IMG/VR virus record: IMGVR_UViG_3300015063_000004
Coordinates: 327 to 64,326 of that record
Direction: 5' to 3' (one strand)
DNA from: a virus
DNA length: 64,000 bases
Position numbers and translations under genes: made by a program. Shown here in pieces: positions 2,611 through 62,359 of the stretch. Numbering within the stretch: the stretch's first letter is position 1; each line of letters starts with the position of its first letter. The notes under the pieces are model-generated. The model ran no database searches. It was not told the origin of the DNA and saw only the letters and a program-made list of their open reading frames with translations.

Positions 2611-3992
2611 ACGTGGCAGAACGGGATTACGCGGCATTCCTGGCGAGCAAGGCCCCGCGAGCGCAGGCGGTTGGCATTGAACCCACTGCGCTTGCATTGC
2701 ATCTTTTCGATTTCCAGAAAGATGCGACGGCATTCTGTTTGCGGCAGGGGCGGGCGGCGTTGTTCCTTGACACTGGCTTGGGAAAAACCGCGTGCGAATT
2801 GGAATGGTGCATGCAGGCTGCGGCTGCAACAAACGGCCGCGCTCTGATACTTACGCCCCTTGCTGTCGCGCGCCAGATTGAGCGCGAGGCGTTGCGGTTC
2901 GGATACGACGTGCGTGTTGTGCGCGATCAGTCCGAAGTGCGTGACGGCATAAACATATGTAACTACGACAGGCTCGATAAATTAGATACCGCTGCCTTTG
3001 GCGCTGTGGCGCTGGACGAGTCAAGCATTCTTAAGTCGTTCAATGGTGCTACCACGCGGGCGCTTATCCAGGGGTTTGCTGGGACTCGGTTTAAGTTAGC
3101 CGCCACCGCCACGCCAGCGCCAAACGATCACATGGAACTTGGGCAGCACGCGGAATTTCTTGGCATCATGCCGAGTAATGAAATGTTGATGCGCTGGTTC
3201 GTCGCCGATCAAACCCAAATGGGAAGATACCGCCTGAAAGGGCATGGCGAGGCGGATTTTTGGGATTGGATGGCGAGTTGGTCCCGCTGTGCCGAAACGC
3301 CCGCCGATCTTGGGTATGATGCCAGTCGCTATGTGCTGCCGGAATTACGAACCCACCGACATCGGGCAATGGGCGACGTGCGCGCTCCAGCGGGTGCTTT
3401 GTTTGTCGAGGATTTGTCTGCGACCAATATCCATTCGATCAAACGGCAAACGGCCGAGACGCGCGCCAGGACCGTCGCCGCTCTGATCGCTGCCGACCCC
3501 GGCGAAACGTGGGTTGTGTGGTGCGATACCGATTACGAATCCGATGCTTTGCGGGCGCTTCTGACTGGCGCTATTGAGGTTCGCGGCTCGCATCCTATTG
3601 AGCGGAAGGAAGCGGCGCTGACATCTTTTGCCGCTGGTGAAGCGAAGGTGATTATTACAAAGCCGAGCGTCGCAGGGATGGGGCTGAATTGGCAACACTG
3701 CGCCCGCGTGGCATTTGTAGGCCGAAGTTTCAGTTACGAGGCTTGGTATCAGGCTGTGCGCCGTTGCTGGCGGTTTGGACAAACGCGGGCGGTTGATGTG
3801 CATCTGATGGTTGCCGAAGGTGAAGATCAGATCGGCCGTGTGATCGCACGTAAGGCGGCCGATCATGTGACCATGAAGCGCGCCATGTCGGCTGCAATGC
3901 AACGCAGTCGCGTTGATGCTGCTGGACTCAAGGTTTCCTACAACCCGACGCATATTGGGAGATTGCCGGGATGGCTGAAATCCACTGTTTGA
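2604..3992 (+). CDS. SF2 (SNF2-like) DNA helicase
   Basis: LDTGLGKT, LDESS, ATATPAPND, GMGLNWQ, QAVRRCWRFGQ. Confidence 0.9.
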   Translation: MLDVAERDYAAFLASKAPRAQAVGIEPTALALHLFDFQKDATAFCLRQGRAALFLDTGLGKTACELEWCMQAAAATNGRALILTPLAVARQIEREALRFGYDVRVVRDQSEVRDGINICNYDRLDKLDTAAFGAVALDESSILKSFNGATTRALIQGFAGTRFKLAATATPAPNDHMELGQHAEFLGIMPSNEMLMRWFVADQTQMGRYRLKGHGEADFWDWMASWSRCAETPADLGYDASRYVLPELRTHRHRAMGDVRAPAGALFVEDLSATNIHSIKRQTAETRARTVAALIAADPGETWVVWCDTDYESDALRALLTGAIEVRGSHPIERKEAALTSFAAGEAKVIITKPSVAGMGLNWQHCARVAFVGRSFSYEAWYQAVRRCWRFGQTRAVDVHLMVAEGEDQIGRVIARKAADHVTMKRAMSAAMQRSRVDAAGLKVSYNPTHIGRLPGWLKSTV

Positions 3993-4864
3993 ACTCTGCG
4001 CAGGGTGATGATTGGGTAACGTATCACGGCGATTGTGTGGACGTGCTGCGACAGATGCCGGAAGCGTCGATTGGGTTTTCCGTGTTTTCTCCCCCATTTT
4101 CTGGCTTATATATTTACAACGACTCCGTTGCAGATATGGGGAACTGTGCCGATGATGCGGAGTTCTTAGAGCAATATCGGTTCTTTGTGCGTGAGTTATT
4201 CCGCGTGATGCAGCCCGGTCGCATCGTGGCTGTCCACTGCAAAGACCTCGTTTACTATAAGACGCAGCGCGGGACGGCTGGTCTGCGCGATCTGCCCGGG
4301 ATGCTAATCCGGGAGCATGTGGAAGCCGGTTTCGATTTCCATTCTCGCGTCACAATTTGGCGCGATCCAGTGCGGGAAATGACGAAAACCAAGGCGCACG
4401 GATTACTCTACAAGCAGCTCCGCGCCGATGCCAGTTTCAGCCGACAGGGGCTGCCCGAATACTTTGTGGTTTTCCGTAAATGGGCCGAGGAAGGCGAAGA
4501 AATCGCGCCGGTCACGCATACCCATGAATCGTTCCCGTTGCCCCAATGGCAGGAATGGGCATCCCCGGTTTGGATGTCCACGCGCGAAACTGACGTGCTA
4601 AACGCTCGCCGAGATCCGACCGACGAAAAACATATCTGCCCCATGCCTCTTGATCTAACGATGCGGGCGACGCTGCTGTGGAGCAATCCGGGTGACGTGG
4701 TGTTATCGCCGTTCATGGGGATCGGCTCCGAGGGATGGGTAGCGTTGAAACACAACCGCCGATTTGTGGGAATTGAATTAAAGGAAAGCTATTGGCGGCA
4801 GGCTTGCCGGCATTTGACTGACGCAAGCGCCAACGCGGTCGATCTGTTTTCGGCAGCCGACTGA
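3971..4864 (+). CDS. Beta-class DNA amino-methyltransferase (N4-mC or N6-mA)
   Basis: Motif IV SPPF precedes motif I SPFMGIGSEG; KHICPM. Confidence 0.88.
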   Translation: MAEIHCLNSAQGDDWVTYHGDCVDVLRQMPEASIGFSVFSPPFSGLYIYNDSVADMGNCADDAEFLEQYRFFVRELFRVMQPGRIVAVHCKDLVYYKTQRGTAGLRDLPGMLIREHVEAGFDFHSRVTIWRDPVREMTKTKAHGLLYKQLRADASFSRQGLPEYFVVFRKWAEEGEEIAPVTHTHESFPLPQWQEWASPVWMSTRETDVLNARRDPTDEKHICPMPLDLTMRATLLWSNPGDVVLSPFMGIGSEGWVALKHNRRFVGIELKESYWRQACRHLTDASANAVDLFSAAD

Positions 4865-50827: not shown

Positions 50828-51931
50828 GTGGTAGTCCTCGCACCGAACGGCACACCCGATAACGGCACGGCAATTAGCGTCGCGCTACTGAGCGGCCCGG
50901 TGACGCTGGAACCGGGCGTGTTTCCGCTGCTGAACCCGATCATCCTGCCGCCGCTGGCGTCGCTACGTGGCGCTGGGCCGCAGTTCACGACGCTGATGCC
51001 CAGCACGGCTGGGATGACGGCGGTTCGGTATGCCGGCGCGGATGGCACGGACGATGCGGCGATCGCTCTGGCAGATTTCACGGTGCATCCGGTGGCGGCT
51101 GGCGTTACCGGCATCGCCATCAAGGGCAGCCTCGCGCCTAACTCCCTAGTTTCCGCCATGACGGTCGATAACGTCGGCCTGACGCTGTGCCAGGCGGGGA
51201 TGGCAGCGGAGAATGTTTGGAGTCCAATCATATCGAGGGTGATCGCCAAGGCTTGCACCGGCACGGCGCTATCGTTCCGCATGTGCGGGCAGGGGATTTT
51301 GTCGGCGAGCGTTGTGGAAAACGGCGGCACCGATCCAGGGGCGGCTGCGATCTTGGTGCAAGGGTCGCCGACCGATGCGCCAGCCGGCGAGGGGTTCGCC
51401 ATTTCCAACACCTACGTCAACACCGTCGCCGGCATGGGCTGCGTCCTGCGCGACGTGCATTTCGTGACGGTTGGCACTAGCTCGTTTACGTCCTGCGCCA
51501 AGGGGGCGCTTTGGGCCGCTGGCAATACGGCGGCGGTTAAGGTTGTCGGGACCGATCTAGGCGCGCAGCAGGACCAGGCCGCATGGGCGGTGTTCTTTGA
51601 TCCTACCACGTCCGGCTGCACCATCGCCGATTGCGAACTATTCGAGGCATACGGCGGTGTCTATGCCCAAGGCCGCGCGCACCGGATTAGCGGGTCTATG
51701 TTCCAGGGCATGAAGCAGTGCGACGCGGCTCTGGCCGGCGCGACCGATTGCATCGTAACCGGCAACACCGGGGATTCCGCTTGCGTGGCGCCGTGGAATT
51801 TTGGGGAAGCTAATACGCTGTGTCGGGGCAACCTGTTCTCGGGCAACATCGTGCGGCGTGGAATCGGCATTGCAACCGGCACGATTTCGTTCGCGGTGAA
51901 TAACCGGAAAATTGGCGGGGGCGGGGCATGA
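50828..51931 (+). CDS. Right-handed parallel beta-helix (pectin lyase-like) protein
   Basis: VTLEPGVF...SLRGAGP..TTL start motif and periodic C/I/N repeats (CIVTGN, FSGNI). Confidence 0.75.
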   Translation: MVVLAPNGTPDNGTAISVALLSGPVTLEPGVFPLLNPIILPPLASLRGAGPQFTTLMPSTAGMTAVRYAGADGTDDAAIALADFTVHPVAAGVTGIAIKGSLAPNSLVSAMTVDNVGLTLCQAGMAAENVWSPIISRVIAKACTGTALSFRMCGQGILSASVVENGGTDPGAAAILVQGSPTDAPAGEGFAISNTYVNTVAGMGCVLRDVHFVTVGTSSFTSCAKGALWAAGNTAAVKVVGTDLGAQQDQAAWAVFFDPTTSGCTIADCELFEAYGGVYAQGRAHRISGSMFQGMKQCDAALAGATDCIVTGNTGDSACVAPWNFGEANTLCRGNLFSGNIVRRGIGIATGTISFAVNNRKIGGGGA

Positions 51932-52629
51932 CGGTAACAACACTATCCCCCGCCGACTACGCCGCCGCTGCCACGGCGCTGGGCTGCGATCCTCCGGCTA
52001 TTCAGGCGCTCGAGGCGGTCGAAAGCGCGGGCAGCGGGTTCCTGCCGGATGGTCGGCCGCAGTTGCTATACGAGGCGCACCGCTTCGACGCACTGACGGG
52101 CGGCAAGTTTCGCGGCGCACTTGACCGCTTCGGCGTGTCGCTATCGGCTCGGGAATGGGATCGGTCATTGTATGGTGCTGGGGGCGCGCACCAGTGGATG
52201 CGACACGACGATGCCGCCAAGCTGGACGCGATGCGCGCGGATATGGCTTGCAGTTGGGGCATGTTCCAAATCCTGGGCGAAAACTTCCATATGTGTGGCT
52301 TTCGCACGGTGCCGGATTTTGTCACGGCGATGCGCGGGAGCGCCGTTCTGCATTTGGCGGCGTTTGTGGTTTTCATCAAAATGTCCAACCTCGCCGGCCC
52401 GCTTGCTCGGCATGATTGGGCGGTTGTCGCGCGCGGTTACAACGGTCCGGGTCAAGTGGATGCGTATGCGGCGAAACTGGCGGCGGCTTACAAGCGGATC
52501 AACGGCGCGGGGACGCTCGCGCACACGATCCAGTACATGCCGATTGGCGCTGATACCGTGCCGCCGGCGATGATGAGCGACGCGGACGTGCTTAACCAGA
52601 GGCAGATAGACAAGGGGACTATCGGATGA
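51928..52629 (+). CDS. Endolysin, N-acetylmuramidase (DUF3380-type)
   Basis: AVESAGSGF...[11 protein letters not shown]...[11 protein letters not shown]...ARGYNGPG. Confidence 0.9.
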
Positions 52630-53750: not shown

Positions 53751-53960
53751 ATGGGCGGTGTTCTCACTCTCGCGATGACGGTGCTTTCGGAGCTTCCTGC
53801 GCTGATTTCGGCTGGGCGGGACGTTTACGGTCTCATTGTCTCCACCAACACCACGATCAAATCGGCGCAGGCAGCGGGGCGCGATCCGACCGATGACGAG
53901 TGGAACGCGCTGCTGGCACTGATCGCGGACGAGAAGGCGGCTATCGACGCGGCGGGTTAG
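53751..53960 (+). CDS. Small hypothetical protein, last late gene
   Basis: Follows the lipoprotein; converges with the early operon. Confidence 0.6.
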   Translation: MGGVLTLAMTVLSELPALISAGRDVYGLIVSTNTTIKSAQAAGRDPTDDEWNALLALIADEKAAIDAAG

Positions 53961-54193
53961 AGTTTCCAATTCCGCGCTTCTTCCGCCGCCATCAAATGCC
54001 ATAGCCTGTGGGCCTCAACCTCCACGGTTTCGGGCAGTTCTACCGATAGAACCTCGCCGCCGGGGTTGACGCCGCGTAGGTGTGATTCCCTGACGGCCTC
54101 GATAAAATCGTCGCCTTCCGCGACTAGCGCGCCGAGGAACTGCGTTCCTTTCGGTCGGTCTGGATCGCAGAAACTTAGCCAAAAATAGGGCAT
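53957..54193 (-). CDS. Hypothetical protein
   Basis: SD GAAGGAAG. Confidence 0.65.
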   Translation of the reverse strand: MPYFWLSFCDPDRPKGTQFLGALVAEGDDFIEAVRESHLRGVNPGGEVLSVELPETVEVEAHRLWHLMAAEEARNWKL

Positions 54194-54241: not shown

Positions 54242-54493
54242 TTAGGCATTGCGAACCCACCTTCTGACTGACAATTCGCAGCCCCAGCTTTTGAGACAAA
54301 TTCCGTTCGCCATACCCCGGTGCGTCGCCGCTCCTTTACATCCGCAACGGCACCGCTTGCGGCGATGCTCGGTGGGTTCGGCGTATCGGATATGCTCGGT
54401 TGCTGATGCTCGGGTTCCCCATTCCGCCGTGCCGCCCCTCATGGCTGCGGCAAGAGCGGCAGGCGACATCCGGTTAAAGTCGCTACTCCCCAT
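54242..54493 (-). CDS. Cys-rich hypothetical protein
   Basis: CRCGC, GICL.SWGC. Confidence 0.6.
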   Translation of the reverse strand: MGSSDFNRMSPAALAAAMRGGTAEWGTRASATEHIRYAEPTEHRRKRCRCGCKGAATHRGMANGICLKSWGCELSVRRWVRNA

Positions 54494-54815
54494 CGCGCGC
54501 CTCCTGCCGGGCGACGGCGGCGAGCATGGCGGTCCAGATGCGACGGCATATCCAATCGCTGGGCATATCGTCGCGTATCCATTCGGTGGCCGCTTCGAGC
54601 ATGCGTTCTGTCGGCTCCCGTGGCACCACCACGAAACCCGCCGCCTCGATGGCCGGTTGGATCGCGCGGAGTGCGGCGGTGGCGTCGGGCATGTATGGCA
54701 CCCACATTGGATCATCGTGGACACCTTCTATCCCGCTAGGGTCCATGCCATCAGCCACGCACAGCGCCCGCGCCGCAGCCTCGATCGCGGCGGGAAGGGT
54801 GGAGAGGACGGTCAT
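54483..54815 (-). CDS. Hypothetical protein, paralogue A of the MTVLSTLP family
   Basis: N-terminus identical to 56786-57430. Confidence 0.7.
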   Translation of the reverse strand: MTVLSTLPAAIEAAARALCVADGMDPSGIEGVHDDPMWVPYMPDATAALRAIQPAIEAAGFVVVPREPTERMLEAATEWIRDDMPSDWICRRIWTAMLAAVARQEARDGE

Positions 54816-54867
54816 GCAATGGCGCTCCCGGCGAAAGTCAGGTCCGTCTTTCCGTCAGGCCAAACCC
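54759..54867. repeat. R1 copy A (109-bp perfect direct repeat; copy B 57374-57482)
   Basis: Base-by-base comparison. Confidence 0.9.
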
Positions 54868-55027
54868 TTGCAATCATCACATCATCATCTAGGCGAATGA
54901 CGTGAACAACCTCGCCCGCCTGACTGGCGCGACGCTTGGCTGTTCCGATAGCGGTTTCAATGTCGTCCTTTTCCGATCCGACGCGAGTGTGGCCGCCGAC
55001 GCGAAGGATGAAAGCATCACCGCCCAT
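54812..55027 (-). CDS. Hypothetical protein
   Basis: SD GGGAGG; ATGA coupling. Confidence 0.55.
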   Translation of the reverse strand: MGGDAFILRVGGHTRVGSEKDDIETAIGTAKRRASQAGEVVHVIRLDDDVMIARVWPDGKTDLTFAGSAIA

Positions 55028-55238
55028 CGTCACCCTCCCGTGCCGGTGGGATCGCGGGGGCGACGTAGCGCCAGCCGTCTTCGCCAGCAAACGCCGGATA
55101 ATAGGGCGGGGGCAGTCCGGTGCGATACCATTTGGTAGCAATCCACTCCCATACTTCCATGCGTCCACCGCCGTCAGAAACCCAATGCCACCGCTTCCCC
55201 CGATGCTCGGCCGGCGGTTCGCAGCGCGGGGCGGTCAT
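55017..55238 (-). CDS. Hypothetical protein, paralogue A of the MTAPRCEPP family
   Basis: First 20 aa identical to 57571-57777. Confidence 0.65.
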   Translation of the reverse strand: MTAPRCEPPAEHRGKRWHWVSDGGGRMEVWEWIATKWYRTGLPPPYYPAFAGEDGWRYVAPAIPPAREGDDGR

Positions 55239-55239
55239 G
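55180..55239. repeat. R2 copy A (60-bp perfect direct repeat; copy B 57719-57778)
   Basis: Base-by-base comparison. Confidence 0.9.
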
Positions 55240-55423
55240 ACTTTGCGACCCTAACAAACAGGTGGCAGTTATATCCGATGCTGACCTGGGCAAACCGGCG
55301 ATGCGCGGCGTCGGTCGCGCCATATCCCTGGAAAATCTCAGGTTTGACTTCTGCGTCGTTGTAGAAGATCAGCCACACGACAGGATCATCCGGCGGCAGT
55401 TTGTCAAACGGATCGTCCGCCAT
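55235..55423 (-). CDS. Hypothetical protein
   Basis: TGATG coupling, SD GGAGGGG. Confidence 0.6.
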   Translation of the reverse strand: MADDPFDKLPPDDPVVWLIFYNDAEVKPEIFQGYGATDAAHRRFAQVSIGYNCHLFVRVAKS

Positions 55424-55602
55424 CACCCCCTCCCCATCGCCGCTTCGAGCGCAGCGCGCATGGCGTCGTGGCGAACCCAACTCTGGTAATCGTCAAACTT
55501 TATGCCAGTTGGAATGATGCGGTTCCGGGTGCGAGTCGCCTCTTTGCGGTGCGCCAGTAAAGCCAGTTCCACCATCCCGTCATCCACCACGCGCAGCCGC
55601 GC
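55420..55602. repeat. R3 copy A (imperfect 183-bp repeat; copy B 57947-58129)
   Basis: First ~90 bp near-identical, then scattered substitutions. Confidence 0.85.
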
Positions 55603-55725
55603 TACCTCGGCGCAGAGGCGGGCGAGTTCGGACAGAACGCTTTCAATGTCTCCGACTCTGACAAAAGGCGTCTCTTCGCGAACCAACATCCACAACCGCG
55701 CCTCGGCCTGCTGCAACGGGGTCAT
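55423..55725 (-). CDS. Hypothetical protein, paralogue A of the MTPLQQ family
   Basis: Both termini shared with 57950-58285. Confidence 0.65.
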   Translation of the reverse strand: MTPLQQAEARLWMLVREETPFVRVGDIESVLSELARLCAEVARLRVVDDGMVELALLAHRKEATRTRNRIIPTGIKFDDYQSWVRHDAMRAALEAAMGRG

Positions 55726-55921
55726 GGCGCGGGGTCCGGTATGGGAAACTTTGCAGGCGCCATCCATTCGTCCATCTCCTCGGCGCATCGGCATGTATCC
55801 TTGCCTTCGCACCGTTTTCCGAAATGAGTTTCAGGCGCGCACTCACTGTCGAACTGCATCATGCGAAACCATCCCGCCCGCAGCCGCTCCACTTCCGCCC
55901 GCGACGCAGCGAGGTCGGCGG
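55722..55921. repeat. R4 copy A (200-bp perfect direct repeat; copy B 58497-58696)
   Basis: Base-by-base comparison. Confidence 0.92.
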
Positions 55922-56120
55922 ATAGGGCGACGGCAGCCGCCTTGGCACCAGCGCTATATCCCGCGCACCATGTCAACTGCGCAAATGTCGGGATACCGTG
56001 GTTGCGCCCCCACTCGATTATGTCGGACGGGCATTGTTCGGCCGCGAGGCCAAGCCAATCGGTGCGTGTCGCACGCTCCCGCGCCTCGGCGGCGAGGGTG
56101 AGGGGGTTAGGTTGGGTCAT
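55722..56120 (-). CDS. Hypothetical protein, paralogue A of the LAAEARERA family
   Basis: C-terminal ~65 aa identical to 58497-58835. Confidence 0.65.
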   Translation of the reverse strand: MTQPNPLTLAAEARERATRTDWLGLAAEQCPSDIIEWGRNHGIPTFAQLTWCAGYSAGAKAAAVALSADLAASRAEVERLRAGWFRMMQFDSECAPETHFGKRCEGKDTCRCAEEMDEWMAPAKFPIPDPAP

Positions 56121-56344
56121 GGTGCAAATCTCCTGCATTGCCACCAAAAGTCTGCACCACCATCAAGGTAATGGTGCTTGCAAATCCGGCGCTTCCATAT
56201 GCGGCGCAACCACACTAAGCCGCCATCATATGTTTCGCGTGGCAACCACGCGAACGACTTGATCCAAGGGCCGCATGGATCGCCGAACACTGGAACGAAA
56301 TCACTTGCGCTCCGCGAGAATTTCGTAAACTGGTAGATACTCAT
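56117..56344 (-). CDS. Hypothetical protein
   Basis: ATGA coupling. Confidence 0.55.
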   Translation of the reverse strand: MSIYQFTKFSRSASDFVPVFGDPCGPWIKSFAWLPRETYDGGLVWLRRIWKRRICKHHYLDGGADFWWQCRRFAP

Positions 56345-56616
56345 CCCCCGTCTCCCCGCGCTGCGGCCAGTGCTGCGCGTGCTGCTTCCAATGCGCGCAG
56401 CCCTTGCGTTGGCATGGGCAGCATATCTTCGCAGTCGGTGACGAAGTTTTTCAGCAGCGTGAGCGCATCCACCAGCACCGCGAACGCATTATGCTCCCGC
56501 ACGATTTGGGCGGCTTCCGGCCAATTAGCGGCGGATGCAATCAACTCGTCTCGACAATATATCTCAGCCTTGTCCTCCCACTGCACAACGCGCCACTCGT
56601 CCCGCTGCTGGGTCAT
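56341..56616 (-). CDS. Hypothetical protein
   Basis: ATGA coupling, SD GGAGG. Confidence 0.6.
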   Translation of the reverse strand: MTQQRDEWRVVQWEDKAEIYCRDELIASAANWPEAAQIVREHNAFAVLVDALTLLKNFVTDCEDMLPMPTQGLRALEAARAALAAARGDGG

Positions 56617-56789
56617 GGCTTGCCTCCACGCGCAAGCCATCGTTCGGCAGCCCGCGCGTTATCCCGAAGCCAGTCCGCATAAGCCGGGAACATCTTCATT
56701 TGGCGCACACGGCTTTCTTCCTCGTGGCACGCTGATATTGTTTCCATCGCGGCTTCTTGTGCTTCGATTGTAAATCCGCGTTCGCTCAC
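56613..56789 (-). CDS. Hypothetical protein, 58 aa (not in the ORF track)
   Basis: GTGA and ATGA overlaps exactly fill the gap. Confidence 0.55.
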   Translation of the reverse strand: MSERGFTIEAQEAAMETISACHEEESRVRQMKMFPAYADWLRDNARAAERWLARGGKP

Positions 56790-57430
56790 GTCCGCCCCTC
56801 CCGCTCCATCGCATCGGCCATGCGGTCGAGTAGGGCGGCGACGGCCAAGTATCCTTTGTCGTTGTTTACCTCTGCATAGCGGCGCATAAACTTCGCGCTA
56901 CTATGCAAATCCTCCGCACTCGGCTCCTGCACTTTCGGCGGGTCGAGCGCGTCGGCGGCGGCGCGGAGGGCGGACCAGCAATCGCGCACGGCGGTAAAGC
57001 TGTGGAGTTGCTCAAAACCCGCATCCACCATCGCGGATGTGGGCCTGACTGGCACCAGCGCGTAGCCTGCGGGCACCGTGCGTGCCTGCTTCCCCGCCGC
57101 CTCCCTAATCGCCCCCTCCCGCCATTTCAGCACCGCCAGCACCGCGCGCATTTCGTCGGGGGACAACTCGCCGGCGGCGAGGCGGATTGCGCTCGGTGTC
57201 AGCACCAGCATATCCGCAGCGCCGTGCAGCGCGTGGCGGGCGGCGCGCTCGGTGGCGGCGTCCACGAACGGCTGGATGGCGGATAGGGCTGCGGTGGCAG
57301 CCGAAAGCATGGTTTCCCATAGCTGCTGGCCATCATCGTCGATGACAGTATCGGGGTCGTCGCCGCCATCGCTGCACAGCGCCCGCGCCGCAGCCTCGAT
57401 CGCGGCGGGAAGGGTGGAGAGGACGGTCAT
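56786..57430 (-). CDS. Hypothetical protein, paralogue B of the MTVLSTLP family
   Basis: Shared N-terminus; C-terminus LDRMADAMEREGRT resembles 58832-59221. Confidence 0.7.
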   Translation of the reverse strand: MTVLSTLPAAIEAAARALCSDGGDDPDTVIDDDGQQLWETMLSAATAALSAIQPFVDAATERAARHALHGAADMLVLTPSAIRLAAGELSPDEMRAVLAVLKWREGAIREAAGKQARTVPAGYALVPVRPTSAMVDAGFEQLHSFTAVRDCWSALRAAADALDPPKVQEPSAEDLHSSAKFMRRYAEVNNDKGYLAVAALLDRMADAMEREGRT

Positions 57431-57469
57431 GCAATGGCGCTCCCGGCGAAAGTCAGGTCCGTCTTTCCG

Positions 57470-57574
57470 TCAGGCCAAACCCGCGACTGCTTCGATGCGC
57501 GCGGCAAGTCGGCCGCTCTTGGCGATGATGCGGGCGAGCCTTTCGGCGGCGCTGTTGTCAGATAGGGCGGTCAT
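57470..57574 (-). CDS. 34-aa ORF ending inside repeat R1 in a shifted frame (possible remnant)
   Basis: ATGA coupling upstream; its stop falls in DNA that codes WPDGKT... in copy A. Confidence 0.4.
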   Translation of the reverse strand: MTALSDNSAAERLARIIAKSGRLAARIEAVAGLA

Positions 57575-57777
57575 GGCTGCGTCTCCTGCCTCGGCGGCTC
57601 GCACGGGGCGACGTAGCGGTAGCCGAGTTCATACGCCTTTTTGGGTTCGACCCACTCGCTGCCCCAACACCCTTCCTGTCGCCATTCAGCCGGCCCAGGT
57701 TCCTCGCCCCGGAACGACACCCAATGCCACCGCTTCCCCCGATGCTCGGCCGGCGGTTCGCAGCGCGGGGCGGTCAT
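57571..57777 (-). CDS. Hypothetical protein, paralogue B of the MTAPRCEPP family
   Basis: Shared first 20 aa. Confidence 0.65.
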   Translation of the reverse strand: MTAPRCEPPAEHRGKRWHWVSFRGEEPGPAEWRQEGCWGSEWVEPKKAYELGYRYVAPCEPPRQETQP

Positions 57778-57950
57778 GGCTTGGGCATCGGCGGAACAAT
57801 TCCGCCGTAATCATTTGGAGCATAGAACTCCACCCGCTTAATCGTTCCGTCCTGGTGATATTCGTAGGACTTCACCAGTGGGCATTTGCCCGGATGTTCC
57901 TTGCCGCAGTAGGCACAATGCCTGTTCGACGTGGCCGCCGTGACTTCCAT
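57774..57950 (-). CDS. Small zinc-binding protein
   Basis: CAYCGKEH...CP. Confidence 0.6.
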   Translation of the reverse strand: MEVTAATSNRHCAYCGKEHPGKCPLVKSYEYHQDGTIKRVEFYAPNDYGGIVPPMPKP

Positions 57951-58285
57951 CACCCTCTCCCCATCGCCGCTTCGAGCGCAGCGCGCATGGCGTCGTGGCG
58001 AACCCAACTCTGGTAATCGTCAAACTTTATGCCAATTGGCATGATGCTGTTCCGGGTTCGAGTCGCTTCTTTGCGGTGTGCCAGCAAAGCCCTCTCCACC
58101 ATCGCATCATCCACCACCCGCAGCCGCGCGATCTCCGCAACCGCTGCGGCGTGCGCGGCGCGGAGGCGGACGAGTTCGGTGAGTAACAGCAACACGTCGC
58201 TTTCCAGCAGTGGAACGTCGCCTGCGCTTTCGCACTCAGCGACGTGTTCACGCAACCGCGCCTCAGCCTGCTGCAACGGGGTCAC
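57950..58285 (-). CDS. Hypothetical protein, paralogue B of the MTPLQQ family
   Basis: Shared termini with 55423-55725. Confidence 0.65.
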   Translation of the reverse strand: MTPLQQAEARLREHVAECESAGDVPLLESDVLLLLTELVRLRAAHAAAVAEIARLRVVDDAMVERALLAHRKEATRTRNSIMPIGIKFDDYQSWVRHDAMRAALEAAMGRG

Positions 58286-58500
58286 GTCTCATCCTCCACC
58301 CTCTTGTTCCACTCAATCGCAGCATCCTCGCACCAGTCCGCAACCGGCCCATATCCGGTGCGAACGTCGCCCGACTGCGCGCCGCAGTTGGTGCATTGAA
58401 CCATTCCCCACTTGGGGCGGCTGATTTCGTCGATGCCGCGATAGCACTGCGGTTGCTGGGGGATGCCGCCACAGAATGGACACGGCTTGAGGACAATCAT
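58282..58500 (-). CDS. lar: Lar-family restriction alleviation-like zinc-ribbon protein
   Basis: LKPCPFCGG...VQCTNCGAQ...AAIEWNKR. Confidence 0.72.
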   Translation of the reverse strand: MIVLKPCPFCGGIPQQPQCYRGIDEISRPKWGMVQCTNCGAQSGDVRTGYGPVADWCEDAAIEWNKRVEDET

Positions 58501-58835
58501 GGCGCGGGGTCCGGTATGGGAAACTTTGCAGGCGCCATCCATTCGTCCATCTCCTCGGCGCATCGGCATGTATCCTTGCCTTCGCACCGTTTTCCGAAAT
58601 GAGTTTCAGGCGCGCACTCACTGTCGAACTGCATCATGCGAAACCATCCCGCCCGCAGCCGCTCCACTTCCGCCCGCGACGCAGCGAGGTCGGCGGTAAG
58701 GGTGGTGATGGCGGTGGCGCATCGCTCAAAACTGGCGGCGGCGTATGGGTTTTTCGCCATGCCCAGCCAACCGTCGCGCAGTGCTTCCGCACGCTCCCGC
58801 GCCTCGGCGGCGAGGGCGGTGGGGTCAGGGGTCAT
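58497..58835 (-). CDS. Hypothetical protein, paralogue B of the LAAEARERA family
   Basis: C-terminus identical to 55722-56120. Confidence 0.65.
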   Translation of the reverse strand: MTPDPTALAAEARERAEALRDGWLGMAKNPYAAASFERCATAITTLTADLAASRAEVERLRAGWFRMMQFDSECAPETHFGKRCEGKDTCRCAEEMDEWMAPAKFPIPDPAP

Positions 58836-59221
58836 GTCCGCCCCTCCCGCTCCTTCGCCTCGGCCATGCGGTCGAGGGCGGCGCGGGCAAGTCGCATTGA
58901 CAGGTTATGGTGAACAGGACCAAGTTTGTTGATCTCGATATAGTTGGCGGTCTCATTGTAAAGAACTCGAAGGGCCGTTCGTAATTGCTGCGCTTCCTCC
59001 CGCAGCCGCGCCACCTCCGCCGTTAGCTGCTGCACCGCTGCGTGGTCGGCGACGATGGTGGCGTGCGCAAAGTCTGCCATCCACACTGCAATGTCATTGC
59101 TAAGCGATGTGCCGTCGATAAATCGCTTCCACGTTGGCTTGGCTTCCACGATCTGCTGCGCAGCGTCGAGTAGGTGCGGCCACTCCGCGCTCGCGGGCTG
59201 CGGTTGGGTGGGGGCGGTCAT
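58832..59221 (-). CDS. Hypothetical protein
   Basis: ATGA coupling; coiled-coil segment. Confidence 0.6.
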   Translation of the reverse strand: MTAPTQPQPASAEWPHLLDAAQQIVEAKPTWKRFIDGTSLSNDIAVWMADFAHATIVADHAAVQQLTAEVARLREEAQQLRTALRVLYNETANYIEINKLGPVHHNLSMRLARAALDRMAEAKEREGRT

Positions 59222-59938: not shown

Positions 59939-60388
59939 TCACTCCCCATCCGCGATGTGTCGGAGGTAGACGGCGACGCGGTGCTGACGTTCATACGCGC
60001 CCGTTTCCGGCCAGTAGTTGTCGAGGCTTTGCGCAGTGAGTAGCAAATCCTCCTTGCTCGGCTTCACTGGCGCGGGCGGGTCGATGCGGTCGGCTTCGGC
60101 ACGGAGGGCATCGGCAACCCTCCGTGCAGGCTCGCCACTGATGCGCGTGTATATTGCGGTTGCAACGCCCCGGAGTTCCGACGCGCTTATGCCGCCAAAC
60201 TCCGACGCCCACGCCCGCCCCGGCAGCAGGCCCTGGCGCTCTAGCTCGGGCAGATGACGGATAGCAACCGAAGCAGCAACATCGCACGTTTCCAAAGCCC
60301 ATCTAACTGTGCGGAACTCGCGCGCAAGACTCTTCACGGCGCGCGGGTCGGGCTGCTGGCTGTCGCGGGCTGCGGTGGGGTGGGTCAT
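59939..60388 (-). CDS. Hypothetical protein
   Basis: SD GAGG before ATG at 60388. Confidence 0.55.
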   Translation of the reverse strand: MTHPTAARDSQQPDPRAVKSLAREFRTVRWALETCDVAASVAIRHLPELERQGLLPGRAWASEFGGISASELRGVATAIYTRISGEPARRVADALRAEADRIDPPAPVKPSKEDLLLTAQSLDNYWPETGAYERQHRVAVYLRHIADGE

Positions 60389-60395
60389 GTCAACC

Positions 60396-60755
60396 TCAAA
60401 GGTCCGGCGCCAAGCCAGCGCCATTGCGTGCCAAGTCGATTGCTTCCTCGGTATCGCCGGGCCGCAAGTTGCGCACAGCCTTCCACATCGCGCGTTGCTC
60501 CCGGCGACGGCGCTTCCGCTCCACCAGCCGCCGCGCAATCGACTCTGCATCGGTTGTGGCAAGAGCCGCCATGATCTGGTTGTAAGTGCAGTTCCGCAGG
60601 GACAGCAGGAACGTGCTGGACGTCGCCGATACTGCCTCGGGATACATGCGCTCGATATAGGCGGCGACCTCTTTGCCGATGTCCATTGCGATCTCTTTCA
60701 CCAGATCGCGCGGGATTGGTTGCGGCGGCAGAGCGGGCAGGTTATCCCCCATCAC
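60396..60755 (-). CDS. Hypothetical protein
   Basis: GTGA coupling with the RecT-like gene. Confidence 0.65.
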   Translation of the reverse strand: MMGDNLPALPPQPIPRDLVKEIAMDIGKEVAAYIERMYPEAVSATSSTFLLSLRNCTYNQIMAALATTDAESIARRLVERKRRRREQRAMWKAVRNLRPGDTEEAIDLARNGAGLAPDL

Positions 60756-61678
60756 GCCGCCGCCCGATCTTCGCCATCGACGGGCGGGGTGTCGTCGCCG
60801 GGCGGTGCCACGGTAGCCGCCGCCACCATCCGCTCAACGTCCGCCGCCGCCGCCGGGTCGAACTCCCGCACCGCCTCGATTTGCGCGACGTTCAGCCCGT
60901 GGGCACTGACGATCTTCTCGGGGACGCCGGCCTTCTGGCACTGGTCGATAAGGCTGCGCCATTTGGCGATCCACTCGCTGCCAGTGCGCAAGATAACGCC
61001 GCCGTTGCGCGTGGCGAACGGGTATTCGGGGCCGGTGGGTTCGTCCGCAAGCGGCACGCTGGCGTTGATCGCGTCGCGGGTGCCGACGCTCTCGCCAGTA
61101 TCCACAACGCGCTCGCCTTCGATCACGCCAAACTCGGGATCGTCCAGTTCTTCCTTCGTGTAAACGCCAAGGATCACGCCCGGCGTCCAGCGCCGCGCCC
61201 AAACCCGGGCCGAGTGATAGACCAACATTTGATCCGGCGACTTCTTCCAATGCTCGTTGTCGGTCTTGGCGTCCTTCCAAACAACCGACACTTCGCGCGG
61301 CTCTTTCTCGCCGCGACGGGTTGCCGACGCGATGACGCACCGATCCGGCCCGGTTCCTTCAAAGCGGTAATCCATCAGGCCGGTAATCGCGTGGCTGTTT
61401 TCCACAGCCGCCGCCACAAGCTTGCCCTCATACCCGAGTCGCCCTTTGTAAACGAATGTTGCCTGGGCGACGGCAATCGGCGACATTTCCCAGCGCATCG
61501 CTTGGTCAATGACCAGCAAGCACGCGCCGGGATCGTTGGCGAAGTGTGCAGGCAACATACTCTTGGCGCGCGACATCATATCCGCGAGTTTGATGGCTTG
61601 GTCCATGTTCTGCGGGATCATCACGCCAGTTGCCGTGGTAGCGACAGCGGTGCGCGGTGCGGAAGTGGTGACAGACAT
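60752..61678 (-). CDS. recT: RecT-like single-strand annealing protein
   Basis: A.MMS...LPAHF..DPG.C...AMRWEMSP.AVAQ...GRLGYEGKL...WK..PDQML.Y...R.WAR. Confidence 0.8.
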   Translation of the reverse strand: MSVTTSAPRTAVATTATGVMIPQNMDQAIKLADMMSRAKSMLPAHFANDPGACLLVIDQAMRWEMSPIAVAQATFVYKGRLGYEGKLVAAAVENSHAITGLMDYRFEGTGPDRCVIASATRRGEKEPREVSVVWKDAKTDNEHWKKSPDQMLVYHSARVWARRWTPGVILGVYTKEELDDPEFGVIEGERVVDTGESVGTRDAINASVPLADEPTGPEYPFATRNGGVILRTGSEWIAKWRSLIDQCQKAGVPEKIVSAHGLNVAQIEAVREFDPAAAADVERMVAAATVAPPGDDTPPVDGEDRAAA

Positions 61679-61679
61679 T

Positions 61680-62186
61680 TTAGCGGCTCCTGATAGAGAT
61701 TGAAGGCATTCCGTTGCTAATCTCAGCCCCTGGCACCACGACACCTTGCTTGATCGCTTCGGTTACGGCGGTTTTGTCTACGGATCGCACGCTGCGCCAG
61801 TATTCGTCAGGGATCGAGTTTTCGTCTGTGACAAGCAGCGATGGCTTTCCCTTTGCAATCGAAGCGGTCAGGTCTGGTGCTTCGATGCGCTTTTTGTCGA
61901 GTGCGTCCATCGCGGCGAAGGCAATGCCGCGCAGTCGATCCCGGCGGCGCTTGTAGCGGTCGGCGCGGTCCTTTGTGTTAGCGGCCATCGTGGCTGCCAT
62001 GTCGGCCATTGCGTCGGCCATTTGGGCAGCGCGCAGGACCGCCAACAACGCCGTTTCCACGTCTGCCGCTTCGTCGGGCAGCAGCGCATCCACGTCGATA
62101 TTCAAGTCGCCATCTTCTCCGCGCAGGGACGTGATGCCGCCGTGGAGAGCCGCTAGGGCTTGGGACAGGCGGTATGCTTCGCTCAC
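61680..62186 (-). CDS. Siphovirus Gp157-like protein
   Basis: Helical N-terminus, IAKGKPSLLVTDENSIPDEY...VDKTAV.EAIKQG..VPGA. Confidence 0.78.
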   Translation of the reverse strand: MSEAYRLSQALAALHGGITSLRGEDGDLNIDVDALLPDEAADVETALLAVLRAAQMADAMADMAATMAANTKDRADRYKRRRDRLRGIAFAAMDALDKKRIEAPDLTASIAKGKPSLLVTDENSIPDEYWRSVRSVDKTAVTEAIKQGVVVPGAEISNGMPSISIRSR

Positions 62187-62359
62187 AGCACCACCCTCAC
62201 AACCTGCGTTCCCGCGTCCACCGCCCATTCCCCGCCGCCGACCCACAGCAGCACGCCGCCCGCGATGGGGCGTGTGGCGCGAACCTGGGCGGTGCTATCC
62301 CCCCAGCGGATCGTGTCGCCGGGGCGTAGCTGCGCGGCGGGGATGGGCGTGTAGGTCAT
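62183..62359 (-). CDS. Small protein, 58 aa (not in the ORF track)
   Basis: MTYTPIPAAQLRPGDTIRW; overlaps fill the gap. Confidence 0.55.
   Translation of the reverse strand: MTYTPIPAAQLRPGDTIRWGDSTAQVRATRPIAGGVLLWVGGGEWAVDAGTQVVRVVL

Follow-up and report, generated by a model that had tools for sequence, protein, structure and literature searches.

The locus described here lies in a 64,000-nucleotide stretch of viral DNA (the window) that covers nearly all of the 64,552-bp IMG/VR virus record IMGVR_UViG_3300015063_000004 from a soil metagenome (linear, 100% complete by CheckV). Between 54.5 and 58.9 kb of this window, two sets of short genes follow each other in the same order and share discrete stretches of repeated DNA. 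This locus appears to be a genuine tandem duplication, in which the duplicated unit is a cassette of small, translationally coupled early genes closing the distal end of a recombination operon. We further consider it likely that the duplication brought together two different alleles of the cassette, which became patchily identical through homologous exchange at conserved modules lying at the gene junctions, probably via the RecT protein encoded in the same operon.

Two cassettes share seven colinear modules at gene junctions

A repeat search, an exact-match scan, a 31-mer scan, and self-blastn of the whole window all agree on seven colinear direct matches between 54.5–56.1 kb and 56.8–58.9 kb, which lie far beyond chance because they are the sole repeats in the 64-kb window at E < 1e-6. 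Both cassettes are encoded on the minus strand, and we refer to the upstream one (at higher coordinates) as unit A and to the downstream one as unit B. In the direction of transcription, unit A comprises gene 1, a Lar-family gene, genes 3, 4, 5, and 5b, and the joint gene A6, followed by the spacer genes X0, X1, and X2, and unit B comprises genes 1, 3, 4, 5, 5b, and 6. The repeats and the colinear gene order that a first-pass annotation of this DNA had read as a tandem duplication are thus confirmed by the repeat searches and the gene list, and its coordinates and lengths were off by a few bases at most (192 bp instead of 183 bp for the imperfect module, and 29 bp instead of 28 bp for the shortest one).

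The modules, named M0 to M6, are given here with their positions in units B and A, respectively. M1 (29 bp, perfect; 56070-56098 and 58788-58816) lies in the 5' part of gene 1 (copy A of 112 aa, 58497-58835; copy B of 132 aa, 55722-56120), and M2 (200 bp, perfect; 55722-55921 and 58497-58696) spans the 3' 66 codons of this gene up to its ATGA junction; the two gene 1 proteins share the N-terminal module LAAEARERA and 66 identical C-terminal residues. M3 (32 bp with 1 mismatch; starting at 55693 and 58253) covers the first 11 codons of gene 3 (copy A of 111 aa with a GTG start, 57950-58285; copy B of 100 aa, 55423-55725), whose copies are 67% identical at the protein level with a variable middle part. 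M2 and M3 are contiguous in unit B and are split by the Lar-family open reading frame (ORF) in unit A. M4 (192 bp, 91%; 55420-55611 and 57947-58138) takes in the 3' end of gene 3, ends at the gene 4 start codon, and holds a perfect core of 78 bp (55430-55507). M5 (60 bp, perfect; 55180-55239 and 57719-57778) runs from the gene 4 stop through codon 20 of gene 5 (copy A of 68 aa, 57571-57777; copy B of 73 aa, 55017-55238), the first 21 residues of which are identical between the copies. M6 (109 bp, perfect; 54759-54867 and 57374-57482) consists of the 52 nt before gene 6 and its first 19 codons. These paired modules are offset by 2527 to 2775 bp. A weaker match, M0 (65 bp, 88%, longest exact run below 20 nt; 56786 and 58832), joins the 3' ends of the genes at 56786-57430 (A6) and 58832-59221 (A0).

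All modules straddle or abut gene junctions, and each cassette junction is a start/stop overlap of 1 to 4 nt. Gene 4 (allele A of 58 aa, 57774-57950; allele B of 62 aa, 55235-55423) is exchanged between the units exactly from start codon to stop codon. The chimeric paralogues with identical N- or C-termini that the first-pass annotation had described are real.

A family of 26-nt sequences (at 55587, 55874, 58114, 58649, and 58996; 73–100% DNA identity) encodes a coiled-coil-like AEV/IxRLR motif that is common to A0, both copies of gene 1, and both copies of gene 3. The A0, gene 1, and gene 3 types may be old paralogues of one another.

Perfect modules are younger than the divergence around them

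The conserved stretches differ strongly in age. In the imperfect part of M4, 16 of 104 positions are mismatched, with 8 synonymous and 5 non-synonymous codon differences in 34 codons, and the perfect tracts show no difference at all in ~140 codons (P ~5e-15 at the synonymous rate of M4). The lack of synonymous differences implies that the perfect tracts are of far more recent origin than the divergence seen elsewhere in the conserved stretches. In unit B, the first 52 nt of M6 encode the C-terminus of gene 5b (allele B of 71 aa, 54812-55027, with its last 17 codons inside this module); in unit A, they follow the stop of an unrelated and doubtful short ORF in the 5b position (57470-57604). That M6 is half coding and half non-coding, together with the synonymous pattern, excludes selection at the protein level as the cause of this identity.

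Neighboring segments of the cassette have different trees

The sole relative that we found, an otherwise unrelated phage here called R, is represented by an IMG/VR contig and a Logan contig from the same soil study that are identical over 10,175 bp. DNA shared between R and the last 20 kb of the window is confined to this cassette, and the modules that R shares have boundaries matching those between units A and B (at ~56070, 55925, 55420, and 55180/55239). Its genes follow the order 156-aa gene, X1-like gene, X2, and genes 1, 3, 4, and 5, which is the order in the window from the tail of A6 onward, and M2 and M3 are contiguous in R just like in unit B. The most strongly conserved piece of the whole cassette is X2 (75 aa, 56117-56344), which matches its counterpart in R (L005:7398-7625) at 100% of protein and 98% of DNA positions. 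R also carries M5, matching copy B at 57/57 positions by blastn with 2/60 mismatches over the full 60 bp.

Comparison of the three sequences segment by segment gives incongruent trees. Across M1, M2, and M5, units A and B are identical (0/289 mismatches) and R differs from both at the same 14 sites (14/289 each). In X2 plus the 5' end of gene 1 and in the N-terminal and middle part of gene 3, unit B and R pair at 97–98% identity (97% at the nucleotide level for this part of gene 3 copy B) and A is unalignable, and in the patch of gene 1 just upstream of M2, A and R are closest to each other. These changes of tree between adjacent segments require recombination with end points in the modules. 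Two hallmarks of phage mosaicism are therefore found at this locus: border stretches are common to different phages amid unrelated sequence, and trees differ between neighboring segments. Identity of the modules amid diverged interiors, combined with the segment-wise tree changes, calls for homologous exchange with end points inside the modules, and the incongruence against R bears out the earlier suggestion of homology-guided exchange at discrete modules.

Further relatives were sought by blastn against phage genomes in GenBank, among IMG/VR proteins, with three exact module patterns, and in public sequencing runs, which returned only R or nothing. In an index of 5.8 billion proteins, genes 1 and 3 matched only the two copies of the window and the copy of R, and an exhaustive profile search with gene 1 added just a handful of proteins, which have its Cys-rich C-terminal domain in common. 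Genes 5 and 6 gave no hits when metagenome and genome contigs were scanned. No RecT gene was found in R, which is a 51%-complete fragment.

In R itself, a 75-nt element occurs at least 4 times in the intergenic spaces of its small early genes (L004:3186-3260, 3478-3552, 4044-4118, and 4728-4802). Two copies are 99% alike, and each copy has a TTGACA-like box, a GC-rich hairpin, and a GGGGAA ribosome site. This element resembles the PeSL cassettes of T4-type phages, and the window has nothing like it.

A fused gene marks the joint between the units

The gene at the downstream end of unit A, A6 (214 aa, 56786-57430), is a chimera. By blastp, it matches gene 6 of unit B (B6; 110 aa, 54483-54815) over residues 1-59 and 121-158, with the N-terminal 19 residues being identical. 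Residues 1 to ~150 of A6 represent an allele of gene 6, and residues ~150-214 represent the C-terminus of a gene of the family to which the 156-aa gene of R belongs (the 156 family). This tail is 86% identical to the R protein and 86.5% identical at the nucleotide level over 56802-56972. The joint lies near 56975-56985, around codon 150, where gene-6-like sequence (TGG xCC GCC) passes into an exact 35-nt match to the 156-aa gene of R across a short GCC-rich homology. A6 thus links the end of one unit in frame to the start of the next. Given the gene order of R, the chimeric A6 is the novel joint that unequal recombination would be expected to leave.

For its C-terminal third, A6 has an upstream counterpart in W149 (59939-60388), another member of the 156 family with 41% amino acid identity to the A6 C-terminus over 54 aa and 37% to the 156-aa gene of R over 121 aa. 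W149 is likely the true start of unit 1, and the repeat unit is larger than first noted, probably starting at ~60388. With this extension, unit 1 holds W149, W216, A0 (129 aa, 58832-59221, with an ATGA overlap with gene 1 and its last ~45 nt ~93% identical to the end of A6), gene 1, the Lar-family gene, genes 3, 4, 5, and 5b, and the N-terminal part of gene 6; unit 2 holds the C-terminal third of a gene of the W149 family, X0, X1, X2, and genes 1, 3, 4, 5, 5b, and 6. The core blocks of the first-pass annotation therefore stand, with the unit now reaching ~60388, the joint placed inside the 214-aa gene, and M0 added as a seventh module.

Downstream of gene 6, we considered a third and degenerate unit and do not propose it because the protein tests were weak (p 0.05–0.07, and 0.007 vs 0.2). 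These included a comparison of gene 6 with the 78-aa gene at 53957-54193 as a possible remnant. Between this gene and B6 lies an unlisted minus-strand ORF of ~74 aa (54242-54466) with a 23/28-nt match to the module at the start of gene 5 (EPTEHRRKR vs EPPAEHRGKR), which might be a remnant of an older third copy of the cassette.

Interiors are old alleles or unrelated genes

Between the modules, the DNA of the two units is only 34–48% identical with 40–50% gaps in a forced global alignment, i.e., it has no DNA similarity. We compared the encoded proteins by Smith-Waterman alignment against 2000 shuffles after removing the shared termini. The variable parts of gene 5 (p ~0.001) and gene 6 (p ~0.0005) are diverged homologues, those of gene 1 (p = 0.036) and gene 3 (p = 0.028) are marginal, and the gene 4 proteins are unrelated (p = 0.84). 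Some slots are thus occupied in the two units by old, deeply diverged alleles and others by different genes. Judging from these alignments, the units carry different alleles of the same slots and not copies that drifted apart after a recent duplication. The statement that the fillers between repeats are unrelated is correct for the DNA and fails at the protein level for genes 5 and 6, with genes 1 and 3 in between. In R, the gene 4 slot is occupied by a third allele that is again unrelated to those of A and B.

The gene inserted in unit A (58282-58500, 72 aa) belongs to the Lar restriction-alleviation family by profile match. It matches PF14354 with 30.8 bits (gathering score 28.6, E = 3.5e-7) and the PHROG annotated as "Lar-like" (phrog_599, 2.2e-10), its homologues at 49–60% identity carry PF14354, and it holds two CxxC pairs (CPFC and CTNC), in agreement with the Lar-like insertion in one block that had been noted before. 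The ORF sits exactly between an ATGA junction on the side of gene 1 and a GTGA junction on the side of gene 3 and is absent from unit B and from R. Lar behaves as a separate movable ORF because its homologues in other phage contigs have neighbors unrelated to the cassette.

Apart from Lar, searches of the cassette genes against Pfam and PHROGs returned only phrog_5913 for gene 6 (B6 at 1.5e-8) and phrog_18133 for X2 (at 9e-18). Upstream, W216 matches phrog_26090, and all three of these families are without assigned function. Look-alikes of the cassette proteins in the Atlas all scored below 0.9, which is below the useful range, and the AlphaFold2 model of gene 1 was too poor (mean pLDDT 60) for a fold search to be of use. 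Calling these genes "anti-host" therefore fits only the Lar family member; for the remaining genes, which are orphans, this label was a guess from their position and from Lar.

The C-terminus of gene 1 (coded by 55722-55921) reads ERLRAGW followed by C-x9-C-x5-C-x-C and then EM-EW, and it recurs with different N-termini in metagenome proteins of 60 aa and 102 aa (P0018 and P0019), one of which starts with CPEC like a zinc ribbon. It represents a small Cys-rich domain that is not known to have been described before.

The cassettes close a recombination operon

The duplicated cassettes belong to a run of minus-strand genes that extends from ~64 kb down to 53.96 kb and converges on the end of the plus-strand late genes, where an endolysin is encoded (51928-52629). 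Within this operon, 2 to 6 kb upstream of the cassettes, the gene at 60752-61744 (minus strand) encodes a RecT-family single-strand annealing protein that matches PF03837 with 47.4 bits (cut-off 24, E = 2.1e-12) and phrog_561 with E = 4.4e-65. The gene next upstream (61680-62246) is Gp157/Mu Gam-like by PHROG and Pfam matches. No exonuclease partner for RecT was found among the neighboring genes tested, and four further upstream ORFs have no PHROG match. The RecT-like protein of the first-pass annotation is hence a real RecT in the same operon, and its part in the diversification is suggested by position and family.

RecT is followed by ~20 short ORFs, nearly all coupled via ATGA, GTGA, or TGATG start/stop overlaps and with a GC content at third codon positions (GC3) of 0.53–0.80. 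The cassette region contains no promoter-like sites (0 vs 2.0 expected) and terminator-like sites at chance level only. Taken together with the coupled overlaps, this lack of signals suggests that the region is read as one translationally coupled early transcript. Regulatory repeats of the PeSL type were rejected as an explanation of the modules for the same reasons (0 promoter-like sites, terminators at chance level) and because the modules lie inside coding sequence.

The spacer genes between the cassettes are similarly coupled. X1 (56341-56616) is joined to its neighbors by GTGA and ATGA overlaps. X0 (58 aa, 56613-56789) overlaps the A6 stop by GTGA and the X1 start by ATGA and, because of these overlaps at both ends, is probably a real coupled gene. 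The GC3 of X0 is low (0.53), and the gene matches no family and lacks a counterpart in R.

Contigs from a second assembler agree with a tandem layout

As a check of the assembly, we used the Logan contigs (k = 31) of the probable source run, made by a second assembler from the same data and given with per-contig k-mer depths. They agree with the window at ≥99%, and their only breaks fall at the four repeats that are at least 31 bp long. One of them, a 1512-bp contig (55892-57403), bridges from gene 1 of unit B across X2 and X1 into A6. As a rough measure, k-mer depth is 9.8 and 11.4x for the unique pieces of unit A, 12.7, 10.8, and 14.7x for those of unit B, 15.7x for the bridge, and 13.3 and 14.3x for the flanks. 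The depth check asked for with the original observation thus gave similar values throughout, and the units are unlikely to be alternative alleles of two strains because their depths do not sum to the depth of the flanks. Each of the four repeats is found exactly twice, both times in the same order, and with this repeat order each single path that uses every unique piece once is a colinear tandem duplication.

The term "accordion" used in the first-pass annotation implies changes in the copy number of like copies and is not supported for this locus: there are only two units, their interiors are deeply diverged (34–48% identical in forced alignment), and the depth of the units is close to that of the flanks.

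Origin of the mosaic

Our favored explanation for the patchy identity is a sequence of two kinds of events. The A6 joint may have arisen when the gene 6 slot and a gene of the 156 family recombined unequally at a short GC-rich homology, either between sister genomes or between two related phages co-infecting one cell. The junction modules would then have been homogenized by recent conversion or crossing-over between the units, since exchange can presumably begin and end only inside islands of homology. The phage's own RecT is the probable catalyst in light of its position and family. RecT of Rac and phi80, Red-beta, and Erf have been shown to recombine short and diverged sequences far better than RecA during lytic growth (PMC3945230). 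Perfect direct repeats of 60 to 200 bp placed 2.5 to 2.8 kb apart would be predicted to produce chimeric single units, triplications, and segment swaps and perhaps excised circles, as for the PeSL repeats of T4-type phages (PMC2839356). The outcome would be new combinations of N-terminal, middle, and C-terminal protein parts.

The same mosaic picture could have formed in the opposite order, i.e., by a recent exact tandem duplication after which the interiors of one copy were replaced one at a time by alleles of other phages via double crossovers in the modules. It would fit this order of events that A and B are identical in the modules and equally far from R (14/289 each), that the imperfect part of M4 might mark where an imported tract ends, and that the Lar ORF between M2 and M3 looks like an import. 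However, it calls for at least 4 to 5 independent double crossovers that each spared the intervening modules of 29 to 200 bp, and it needs donors with diverged alleles for every slot when several very large collections contain only one relative. It leaves the mechanism unchanged (exchange at junction modules, with RecT as the likely catalyst in both cases) and alters only the order of events. It is less economical, and we hold it to be rather unlikely. The possibility that no recombination took place and that identity merely reflects strong functional constraint (on interaction peptides, coupling signals, or an overlapping RNA element) is extremely improbable. The modules do lie at start/stop overlaps, where coupling signals are found, and a few other proteins have a conserved version of the gene 1 C-terminal domain. 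But constraint of this kind does not account for 0 synonymous differences in ~140 codons vs 8 in 34 adjoining conserved codons, for a part of the 109-bp module being non-coding in one unit, or for the incongruent trees of neighboring segments.

It also seems very unlikely that the duplication is an assembly artefact in which two strain variants, or a genome and a small circular by-product, were threaded together through shared perfect repeats. The contig does come from the metagenome of one sample, repeats of 60 to 200 bp tangle short-read graphs, and recombinants at repeats add no k-mers, so contigs cannot exclude mixtures; moreover, small circles excised between nearby repeats are known from T4-type phages (PMC2839356). 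Against this, each unit is about as deep as the flanks, when alternatives would sum to flank depth, and the 1512-bp contig links A6 via X0, X1, and X2 to the start of unit 2 through unique sequence. R has the same order of A6 tail, X1, X2, and gene 1, the homology at the outer borders (65 bp, 88%, exact run below 20 nt) is too short for a k-mer misjoin, and all Eulerian paths through the graph are tandem. Of the two alternatives given with the original observation, unequal recombination between related phages is therefore still live as an origin of the duplication, and co-assembly of variants is disfavored by layout and depth.

Several points weigh against a two-allele duplication homogenized by RecT-mediated exchange. 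All DNA evidence comes from one soil sample, with unit A seen only in the probable source run, and it consists of short-read contigs and of a rough k-mer depth. Recombinants at perfect repeats create no new k-mers, and the phase of the three inner variable segments is not fixed by the contigs across the 200-bp repeat; in R, contig-like linkage across this repeat connects X2 and the 5' end of gene 1 to M2 and a B-type gene 3. The role of RecT is proposed from its position and family, the order of events fits a diverged pair with later conversion as well as a recent exact duplication with later imports, and any claim about the population rests on one comparison with a single relative.

A bolder idea, which we regard as quite unlikely, is that the locus is a self-shuffling diversification cassette in which two allelic sets of small host-directed proteins are kept in tandem and the modules serve as crossover points for RecT. 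Each burst would then contain a mixture of deletion, triplication, and swap recombinants, in as many as 2^3 phase combinations and alongside single chimeric units and circles of 2.5 to 2.8 kb that were cut out, and the phage would carry a bet-hedging library of chimeric proteins against variable host defenses. The logic would be like that of hsdS domain shuffling, here spread over a multi-gene operon.

Significance and relation to known systems

An old question is whether phage mosaics result from homologous exchange at gene junctions or from random illegitimate joins sorted by selection. Most evidence on mosaicism comes from the comparison of different phages long after the event, and here both partners lie in one genome beside a RecT gene, with letter-perfect modules, an in-frame fusion joint, and a Lar ORF sitting exactly in a start/stop overlap preserved. 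Should single molecules bear out the tandem form, the locus would serve as a naturally occurring reporter of how often, and with which end points, short homologies recombine in an uncultured soil phage, and it would illustrate how proteins with a common N- or C-terminus and a different remainder originate. The finding is limited to a single metagenome sample and a single relative. Within this scope, the locus is a clear example of phage gene reshuffling at conserved junctions by a mechanism that is not new.

According to the modular theory, lambdoid and other temperate phages are mosaics with joints at gene boundaries. The locus resembles these joints in its short conserved border stretches that are common to two phages and flanked by unrelated or highly diverged alleles. 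Unlike in temperate-phage mosaics, both alleles are found in tandem in one genome instead of in two phages or a phage and a prophage. With the relaxed recombination of Rad52-like or RecT-class proteins (PMC3945230), it shares an encoded RecT-class gene and exchanged tracts of ~100 bp within genes. Phage genomes are usually free of repeats according to the same study (PMC3945230), unlike this locus with its four perfect direct repeats of 60 to 200 bp and modules that are 100% identical.

At the PeSLs of T4-type phages, recombination between repeats inserts, deletes, or replaces ORFs and can excise circles (PMC2839356). As in these regions, short repeats flank small non-essential ORFs in a hyperplastic early region. 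However, PeSLs are intergenic promoter-terminator units, whereas the modules in the window are coding gene junctions without promoter or terminator signals. In the lpl cluster of tandem paralogues of Staphylococcus aureus, a conserved stretch is the site of recombination and the variable parts are shuffled (Tsuru and Kobayashi 2008, PMC2568036). Common to both are tandem paralogues and an evolutionary unit that spans two adjacent genes, yet the arrangement is reversed: in lpl, the center of the ORF is conserved and the 3'-intergenic-5' part is variable, whereas in the window the junction is conserved and the ORF interior is variable. Furthermore, lpl concerns one gene in a bacterial island, unlike the six-gene cassette duplicated here in a phage.

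Accordion amplification is known from K3L of poxviruses. In T4 and T6, segmental amplification of counter-defense genes gives rise to like copies of changing number (PMC9391042, PMC13096335). The locus is similar to all of these in having extra tandem copies of early or accessory genes, formed via recombination, in a region with a gene of an anti-restriction family. Unlike accordions, where near-identical copies change in number under selection, it consists of two deeply diverged units with no evidence of a change in copy number.

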